Shown: positions 19,416-20,341 of the stretch, one piece after another
How positions within the stretch are numbered: the stretch's first letter is position 1
How the letters are laid out: every line of letters starts with the position of its first letter
DNA from: Escherichia coli
GTDB lineage: Bacteria > Pseudomonadota > Gammaproteobacteria > Enterobacterales > Enterobacteriaceae
Direction: 5' to 3' (one strand)
Assembly (NCBI RefSeq): GCF_044647545.1
Contig: NZ_CP172818.1
Length of the DNA: 64,000 nucleotides
Notes under the pieces: model-generated
The model's input: only the letters and a program-made list of their open reading frames with translations
Database searches by the model: none
What the model was told of the DNA's origin: nothing
Program-made: the position numbers and the translations under genes

Positions 19416-20341
19416 ATGGATGCACCGAGTACCACACCGCATGATGCGGTGTTTAAACAATTTTTAATGCACGCGGAAACGGCTCGCGACTTTCTGGATA
19501 TCCATTTGCCAGCGGAGCTACGCGAACTGTGTGACCTCGACACGCTGCATCTTGAGTCGGGGAGTTTTATTGAAGAAAGCCTGAAAGGGCACAGCACTGA
19601 CGTGCTCTATTCCGTGCAAATGCAGGGTAATACGGGCTATCTACATGTTGTAATTGAACACCAAAGCAAGCCGGACAAAAAAATGGCCTTTCGCATGATG
19701 CGTTATTCTATTGCTGCCATGCACCGGCATCTGGAGGCAGATCACGATAAGCTGCCGCTGGTGGTGCCGATTTTGTTTTATCAGGGCGAGGCCACGCCTT
19801 ATCCACTCTCAATGTGCTGGTTTGATATGTTTTACTCGCCGGAGCTGGCGCGACGCGTCTATAACAGTCCTTTCCCGCTGGTGGATATCACTATCACACC
19901 GGATGACGAAATCATGCAACATCGGCGGATTGCGATTCTCGAACTGCTGCAAAAACATATTCGCCAGCGCGACTTAATGTTATTGCTGGAGCAACTGGTC
20001 ACGCTGATTGACGAAGGGTACACTAGCGGAAGTCAGTTAGTTGCCATGCAAAACTATATGCTGCAACGCGGTCATACTGAACAAGCGGATTTGTTTTATG
20101 GTGTGCTGAGAGACAGGGAAACGGGAGGGGAGTCTATGATGACGCTGGCGCAGTGGTTTGAAGAGAGGGAAAAAGAAAAAGAAGACAGGAGGTAAGACAG
20201 GAGGTAATACAAGAGGTAAGACAGGAAGTAAGACAGGAATTCGCCCTGCGTTTTCTGAGTAAAGGGATGTCTCGGGAAGACGTTGCAGAGATGGCAAATT
20301 TATCTCTTGCTGAGATTGATAAGCTAATTAACTCTAACTAA
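19416..20341 (+). pseudogene. rpnC: Recombination-promoting nuclease RpnC (YadD, PD-(D/E)XK family); reading frame interrupted near the C-terminus, so apparent pseudogene or sequencing error
   Basis: ORF 19416..20195 (259 aa) stops inside a QEVR repeat tract; the conserved C-terminal tail ...ALRFLSKGMSREDVAEMANLSLAEIDKLINSN continues in another frame to stop at 20339..20341; total span 926 nt is not a multiple of 3. Confidence 0.6.
20181..20236 (+). repeat. Tandem 12-bp repeats (gacaggaggtaa-like, encoding QEVR in the tail frame) within rpnC
   Basis: gaagacaggaggtaagacaggaggtaatacaagaggtaagacaggaagtaagacagg read directly; about 4.5 copies. Confidence 0.8.

Follow-up and report, generated by a model that had tools for sequence, protein, structure and literature searches.

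A private frame break beside the specificity repeats of rpnC in one Escherichia coli assembly, most likely an error

In the assembly studied here, the reading frame of the rpnC (yadD) gene of Escherichia coli stops beside an array of 12-bp repeats, and the C-terminal tail that should follow is written in another frame. Is this break a switch that turns the gene on and off, a lesion that has inactivated it, or an error in the sequence? The initial annotation, made from the letters alone, had hesitated between a slipped-strand, phase-variable-like lesion and a sequencing error. We examined the question in the window, that is the whole stretch of 64,000 nucleotides that was analysed, and by comparison with related genomes.

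The E. coli rpn genes are toxin-antitoxin systems organized as genes within genes (Zhong et al., 2023, PMC10400941). The toxin, RpnL, is a DNA endonuclease; RpnS, produced from an internal start, corresponds to its C-terminal tail and blocks RpnL, an inhibition reported for RpnA, RpnB, RpnC, and RpnP2 (PMC10400941). RpnC-S has been detected, and its repeats begin 8-20 residues past the initiating Met. The dodecamers encode four-residue repeats that are hypervariable, RpnC having the most among the rpn genes; one extra repeat in RpnC-S or in RpnC-LS alone abolishes inhibition, and one in both restores it (PMC10400941). Some strains contain a second tail gene downstream, rpnC-Ss, and rpnSs genes have been lost by deletion or fusion (PMC10400941).

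The interrupted rpnC gene and its out-of-frame tail

In the window, rpnC (+ strand) lies between panD (18762..19142, - strand) and panC (20423..21274, - strand), an order also found in K-12, ST131, SCU-172, and ECONIH1. The features of the locus are the following.

19416..20195, + strand: rpnC (yadD) long frame, RpnC-L as written, ATG start, 259 aa (ORF list, translation)
19434..20036, + strand: PD-(D/E)XK / Transposase_31 (YhgA-like) nuclease domain, intact (Pfam PF04754)
20123..20141, + strand: internal Shine-Dalgarno GGGAGGGGAG and ATG ATG, arranged as GGGAGGGGAG-N3-ATGATG, in frame 0 and upstream of the break
20162..20341, + strand: out-of-frame C-terminal tail, HTH_Rpn_C-type RpnS domain (translation, TIGR01784, tblastn)
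20167..20181, + strand: aberrant A-rich tract GGGAAAAAGAAAAAG (alignment to ECONIH1 and SCU-172)
20182..20238, + strand: dodecamer array of the AAGACAGGAGGT type, 4.8 copies (Tandem Repeats Finder, 88% matches, score 93)
20193..20195, + strand: premature TAA, formed by the GGT AAG junction between two repeat units read out of frame
20299..20341, + strand: S/Ss fusion junction and 3' end, where the sequence switches from the rpnC-S to the rpnC-Ss type and ends ..AEIDKLINSN before the stop

The position between panD and panC and the nuclease domain both support the rpnC identity proposed by the initial annotation. PF04754 matches residues 7-207 of the 259-aa product with 293 bits (cut-off 21, E 1.4e-87), the stretch encoding this domain shows zero differences from ECONIH1, and residues 1-250 are identical to those of ECONIH1 RpnC. 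The domain, the synteny, and the near-identity establish that the gene encodes an Rpn family nuclease orthologous to RpnC. As had been read initially, the ORF list and the translation place the end of the frame, ...AQWFEEREKEKEDRR, at the TAA in 20193-20195, so that RpnC-L of the window is cut about 50 residues short of its usual end. The NCBIfam profile TIGR01784 gives the same picture. The 259-aa product covers positions 1-232 of its 273 (240 bits, cut-off 52.1) and the out-of-frame tail covers positions 227-273 (E 4.7e-7), which confirms that this conserved tail is part of RpnC, as had been supposed. As written, rpnC gives no full-length match in one frame with the tail included; a one-base repair extends the match to positions 1-273 with 274.7 bits.

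The tail frame (-1) is open from 20162 to a TAA at 20339-20341 and encodes REGKRKRRQEVRQEVIQEVRQEVRQEFALRFLSKGMSREDVAEMANLSLAEIDKLINSN. It has no ATG, GTG, or TTG start before the Met of KGMSRED. A tblastn search with residues 254-310 of ECONIH1 RpnC aligned to 20162..20332, in the other frame. According to precomputed annotation, which covers the relatives only, the small ORFs of relatives carry PF27070 (HTH_Rpn_C). With the tail of the window itself, the local Pfam library gave only sub-threshold HTH-like matches, and a PDB sequence search returned no Rpn entry, the top match being a designed repeat protein.

Upstream of the tail, the internal Shine-Dalgarno and ATGATG at 20123-20141 are conserved in K-12, ST131, SCU-172, and ECONIH1. 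We infer that 20136 would be the start of the small antitoxin RpnC-S, an exact codon that is not taken from Zhong et al. Judged by the K-12 literature, from which the roles of L and S are carried over, RpnC-L would be a PD-(D/E)XK DNA endonuclease, and RpnC-S would be its C-terminal helical domain alone, made in the same frame from 20136 and blocking the nuclease. By the same analogy, the four-residue repeats would sit in the first helix of the S domain, and their number would set the fit of S to L. The array at 20182-20238 does begin 8-20 residues after the internal Met, and the number of 12-nt repeats varies between strains. In the window, the peptide read from the internal ATG has 19 residues (MMTLAQWFEEREKEKEDRR and a stop), and the small protein as written does not share the frame and sequence of the C-terminus of the long protein. 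A simple sigma-70 scan for an internal rpnC-S promoter found none on the + strand, a result that is uninformative since the published evidence for this promoter is an experimental transcription start site.

An A-rich tract in place of the first repeat unit

The initial annotation placed the break in a poly-A tract. In fact GGGAAAAAGAAAAAG consists of two A5 runs split by a G, its longest runs being A5 and G3, and is not a homopolymer; a longer run, A7, is found in frame in the same gene at 19677. The 12-bp QEVR repeats noticed beside the break correspond to the array detected by Tandem Repeats Finder at 20182-20238, and the program also reported GAAAAA in 2.5 copies at 20169-20183. In the tail frame, the array encodes QEVR/QEVI four-residue repeats, which are in frame in the relatives. 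They correspond to the hypervariable repeats already published as setting the specificity of the RpnL/RpnS pair.

The claim that one restored base would rejoin the frames is correct: one base added anywhere in GGGAAAAAGAAAAAG yields a continuous frame, reading ERGKRKRR.. with an added G, EREKRKRR.. with an A in run 1, and EREKEKRR.. with an A in run 2. The repaired tract then encodes K/R-only residues (GKRKRR or similar) and lacks the hydrophobic position that is present in every natural unit (QEVR, KGIE, KGFQ...).

The window belongs to an ST648-like E. coli of phylogroup F, and its flanks are 99.9-100.0% identical to ECONIH1, MS6198, a strain named ST648 (NZ_CP008697.1), and others. In these relatives and in ST131, rpnC is intact, with 306-310 aa ending ...FEERGRQE(E/V)RQEVRQEVRQEVIQEVRQEVRQEFALRFLSKGMSREDVAEMANLPLAEVDKLIS before the stop, and is followed, after a spacer of ~68-95 nt, by an rpnC-Ss ORF of 65-67 aa. 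In the relatives, rpnC-Ss ends ..AEIDKLINSN or a close variant. The upstream region and the nuclease domain of the window are identical to ECONIH1. At the break, GGGAAAAAGAAAAAG stands where the relatives carry GGGGAAGACAGGAGG(T), their first repeat unit, and causes the -1 frame change. Compared with ECONIH1, it differs by six substitutions and a 13-nt gap at 20170-20180; from the SCU-172 allele, it is 7 edits away, one of them a 1-nt deletion. All the tract differences from the nearest relatives fall within about 16-29 nt. The notion of a base lost from a tract is thus not supported: GGGAAAAAGAAAAAG is not a shortened form of the relatives' tract but replaces their first repeat unit(s).

The initial annotation had proposed to compare tract length and repeat copy number across strains. 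No length-variant tract was found, the relatives carrying GGGGAAGACAGGAGG. Copy number does vary, by whole 12-nt units: the relatives have 2 to about 8 units, the differences among nine loci, and among many database tails, are of entire four-residue units, and the record spans at the locus among complete E. coli genomes are 568, 580, 592, and 604, that is, 12-nt in-frame steps.

Two further differences lie downstream of the tract. A T>A change at 20218 relative to ECONIH1 makes the repeat unit homogeneous, and about 280 bp of the relatives (291 compared with ECONIH1) are absent from the window, so that the rpnC-S tail runs directly into that of rpnC-Ss. The 3' flank of the tail is of the Ss type. 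Aligned to ECONIH1, the junction is a mosaic, with copy 1 at 20291-20298, copy 2 at 20303, copy 1 at 20311, and copy 2 from 20315 onwards. Other S/Ss fusions exist in the P0005, GTEN_97, and strain 405 alleles with different crossover points, and the crossover of the window (around 20299-20315) was found in no other record. The repeats and this type of fusion are already known features of RpnC-L/RpnC-S. The initial annotation had recognized neither that the repeats are the published RpnL/RpnS specificity repeats nor that the tail is fused with an rpnC-Ss copy.

The allele as a whole was searched for in several collections. Among 5,426 complete E. coli genomes, none gave a one-piece match; the best reached 95.2% and matches always came in two pieces. 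Scans for the tract, with one extra base allowed at two places, gave 0 matches in JGI metagenome contigs and 0 in GTDB species representatives. Exact look-ups of the truncated 259-aa product, of the three one-base-restored products, and of three 'clean fusion' parent products found none of them on record, a weak kind of search because pseudogenes get no protein in annotation and because it detects exact sequences only. The control look-up worked: 6,035 blocks (subsets) of the protein collection contain the 310-aa ECONIH1 allele without any change, indicating that the array is stable within the clade. In a collection of 5.8 billion proteins, a search with the tail found no GKRKRR or EKEKE, and it did return many repeat-number variants and one independent fusion. 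Within the window, the 23-nt tract is present as a single copy, with 0 expected by chance, and a search for a gene-conversion donor found no second copy even with 3 mismatches. The rpnC allele is private to one assembly.

Error, lesion, or switch

Other private differences are found in the window. They were counted against the clade in two flanks (41 kb), with no fewer than 3-8 nearly identical genomes as reference. The left 19.3 kb contains 0 private SNPs and two private deletions (462 and 11281), and the right 21.9 kb contains 0 SNPs and two private indels, +1 at 56032 and -5 at 62931 (compared with at least 8 genomes), giving four private indels and 0 private SNPs for both flanks together. 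Two genes are also broken.

39904..42084: fhuA, in three frames as a result of six private indels
24763..25330, - strand: yadM-like fimbrial gene, broken by a private +2/-1/substitution cluster at 25140-25148

The fhuA indels are at 40944, 41309, 41459, 41611, 41618, and 41625, and the sequence between them is otherwise identical. They were found in none of the 561 genomes with fhuA at ≥80% query coverage and ≥95% identity. Borrowing from the K-12 allele, which would have pointed to a chimera of mixed strains, was considered and rejected, as K-12 is only 74% identical there and explains none of the six, a comparison that is silent on other alleles. Among the private indel sites, one is a Dcm site (CCTGG), one is beside a Dam site (GATC), and several are near (A/T)ATGG; nothing was consistent enough to claim a common motif. 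In total, private events of the indel or complex kind number at least 10 in the window, and the two clade-checked flanks contain no private SNP.

Private differences dominated by indels, with no SNP in the flanks, favor a consensus error over divergence, and we consider an error of consensus or assembly, located at the 5' edge of the purine-rich repeat array, the most likely source of the frame break. The left edge of such an array is where consensus callers are weakest. GGGAAAAAGAAAAAG sits exactly on this edge, and it can be derived from the ECONIH1 segment by dropping 13 G/C/T and keeping all ten A's. In the window, the two tails of the relatives are fused through the loss of ~280 bp, and a degenerate A-rich string, too short by 13 nt (or 1 nt), takes the place of the first repeat unit(s) and leaves the tail out of frame. 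If this string is an error, the organism would probably make RpnC-L and RpnC-S, the former in normal or S/Ss-fused form. The sequencing error that had been kept as an alternative was rightly kept and now appears the likelier explanation. Against an artefact, the A7 run at 19677 has been called correctly, and a general weakness of the assembly at homopolymers is therefore not the whole story.

The break could instead be a real, private, and complex mutation that has made rpnC a pseudogene and that may have arisen together with the S/Ss fusion. We regard this as possible but doubtful. Fusion and loss of rpnSs are documented (PMC10400941) and natural S/Ss fusions with other crossovers occur; the 280-bp deletion, at least, may therefore have happened in the organism, and the odd tract could be the product of a genuine rearrangement. 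The mosaic junction at 20298-20315 and the T>A at 20218 resemble recombination or heteroduplex repair rather than random error, and the other private indels lie mostly outside homopolymers, so that no single platform-specific error model fits. The broken genes (the phage receptor FhuA, a fimbrial subunit, and a phage-defence nuclease) are of the kinds lost in nature, and the nuclease domain, the promoter region, and the internal start of rpnC are untouched. A truncated L without antitoxin should also be tolerable, given that loss of the last 45 residues leaves RpnD with much lower activity, although not dead (Kingston et al., 2017, PMC5350276). Against a real lesion, six substitutions and a deletion in 16 nt would be an unusual natural mutation, the allele was found in none of the collections searched, and at least ten other private events, six of them in fhuA, with no flank SNP, are hard to explain biologically. 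It is very unlikely that the lesion is real and arose from a break at the array edge repaired by error-prone or template-switching synthesis, the cut possibly made by the Rpn nuclease. Zhong et al. speculate that the Rpn nuclease itself makes breaks in the array (PMC10400941). If the array had been remodelled in this way, a single repair would have fused S to Ss, homogenised the unit at 20218 (T>A), and scrambled one repeat unit; the scrambled unit would disarm the toxin tail and the antitoxin, and would record the mechanism by which the dodecamer arrays are remodelled.

Phase variation and recoding, taken jointly, are highly improbable. In a slipped-strand switch, one-base slippage in the A/G runs would toggle RpnC at high frequency, and one base added to GGG or to either A5 does rejoin the frames, at a locus that is under diversifying selection and whose repeat number changes between strains. 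Contingency loci use runs of about 8 or more, and the runs here have only 3-5 nt; the units, of 6 and 12 nt, are divisible by three and keep the frame. The tract occurs in no other genome, hence no tract-length polymorphism, and no 'on' counterpart is on record, the parental allele being unchanged in the 6,035 blocks. The restored sequence would moreover still be an abnormal repeat unit. The on/off interpretation offered initially therefore falls on the short A5 runs, the in-frame units, the private tract, and the missing on/off pair, and we hold it to be extremely improbable. To the remaining idea, that a programmed -1 ribosomal frameshift or transcriptional slippage on GAA AAA GAA AAA G produces full-length L and S, we give almost no credence. 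The tail is in the -1 frame, and, as read from the sequence, an A-site Lys AAA preceded by A can re-pair in that frame. There is, on the other hand, no in-frame X XXY YYZ heptamer, a P-site GAA cannot re-pair on GGA, and A5 is too short for transcriptional slippage. Nor is a downstream structure present: the predicted RNA fold of 20176-20275 has -13.6 kcal/mol with z = +0.72, 152 of 200 shuffles folding at least as well, and nothing is conserved, as the allele is private. A conserved heptamer with a stimulatory element, as in dnaX-type frameshifting, was thus not found. Nothing supports an on/off switch; the break is peculiar to one assembly and most likely an error.

These results call for caution in interpreting the locus, as the QEVR repeats determine specificity in an antiphage toxin-antitoxin pair and change in number by entire 12-nt units. 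The indel-only private differences mark the assembly as an unreliable basis for calling pseudogenes; the fhuA call is among those affected, and taken at face value it would point to resistance to phage or colicin. Should the lesion be real, the frame shared by L and S lets one frameshift cut the toxin tail and the antitoxin at once; with rpnC-Ss also gone, a tail-less and probably attenuated nuclease would remain and the RpnC defence would be lost.

Comparison with known systems

Simple-sequence contingency loci vary phase through homopolymers or short repeats, for example in Neisseria, Haemophilus, and Campylobacter. The window shares with them a frame break beside tandem repeats, diversifying selection, and restoration by one base. 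Unlike these loci, its runs do not exceed 5 nt, its units are multiples of 3, and it shows no length polymorphism and no on/off pair; of the two marks of a contingency locus, a long homopolymer or non-triplet unit and tract-length polymorphism, neither was found. The TAEL repeat of EcoR124I/EcoR124II offers another parallel, since gain or loss of its 12-nt in-frame unit alters specificity and not expression (cited in PMC10400941). EcoR124I/II is a specificity subunit of type I restriction and not a toxin-antitoxin tail, so the analogy extends to the role of the repeats only.

The window departs from RpnC-L/RpnC-S in that neither the long nor the short start is in frame with its tail as written, and from other RpnC alleles in that its first repeat unit is an A-rich string. 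Its crossover (around 20299-20315) was seen in no other record, and the other S/Ss fusions have theirs at different places. With RpnC-L/RpnC-S (Zhong et al., PNAS 2023, PMC10400941; Kingston et al., J Bacteriol 2017, PMC5350276), it shares the gene, the position, and the nuclease domain, as well as the internal Shine-Dalgarno and ATG, repeats ~10 residues after the internal Met, and an HTH-like tail. With rpnC-Ss (PMC10400941), it shares the Ss-type end and 3' flank of its tail, which is the type of fusion mentioned in that paper.

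Indel profile of the flanks and the fhuA and yadM-like frames

The following features of the window differ from those of related E. coli genomes, private changes being those found in the window only:

39904..42084, plus strand: fhuA, in three separate frames (39904-40998, 40934-41677 and 41650-42087)
40944 (+1), 41309 (-9), 41459 (+3 with 2 substitutions), 41611 (+1), 41618 (-1) and 41625 (-1): six private indels in fhuA
24763..25330, minus strand: in the yad operon, a yadM-like gene for a fimbrial subunit, frame broken
462 (-1), 11281 (-2), 56032 (+1) and 62931 (-5): four private intergenic indels

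The six private indels, which account for the splitting of fhuA into three frames, have a net effect of -6 nt on its length as compared with the closely related strain ECONIH1, and the stretches between them are otherwise the same as in ECONIH1. None of the 561 genomes compared, i.e., those carrying fhuA at ≥80% query coverage and ≥95% identity, has these six indels in common with the window. On this sequence comparison, the split looks like a consensus error and not like a loss of the receptor. The frame of the yadM-like gene is lost through a private cluster (+2/-1/G>C) at 25140-25148; the T deleted in this cluster lies within a Dcm site, CCTGG. In the flanks holding the four intergenic indels, no private SNPs were found relative to the closest genomes, and the difference profile of these flanks, judged by alignment, is one of indels only.

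A split rpnC in another public assembly

In another E. coli assembly (GCA_019431125.1, JABTXT010000002.1), rpnC is divided into two ORFs of 198 and 119 aa, and panD, panC, and yadE are also in pieces within the same 3 kb. This assembly is evidently error-ridden and shows that rpnC "frameshifts" of such kind do reach databases as artefacts.

The rpnC repeat unit, the S/Ss junction, and fusions in other strains

In the window, the T>A substitution at position 20218 brings an rpnC repeat unit into full agreement with the array consensus. At the junction between rpnC-S, the antitoxin-encoding tail of rpnC, and its second copy rpnC-Ss (20299..20315), the sequence follows copy 1, copy 2, copy 1, and copy 2 in turn, as assigned from the informative sites 20298, 20303, 20311, and 20315. 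This pattern fits with patchy heteroduplex repair, with a chimeric consensus, or with a parental Ss copy that differed slightly.

The free-standing rpnC-Ss was found in other strains:

SCU-172 (locus L001), 1733..1921: rpnC-Ss
L002, L007, and L009 (rpnC loci of other genomes): rpnC-Ss as downstream ORFs

It carries four-residue repeats of its own (KGFQ, AYQE, QEVR) in a strain-dependent number. PGAP does not name it consistently: among its labels are "RpnC/YadD family protein" and "hypothetical protein", and it also appears as a pseudogene, "transposase", said to be "missing N-terminus". Finally, an 848-nt ENA contig (P0005) contains an independent rpnC-S/rpnC-Ss fusion allele, ..QEFALRFLSKGMSREDVAEVTALSLAEIDKLINSN. 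Since its crossover is located at another place, upstream of that in the window, the fusion event recurs.
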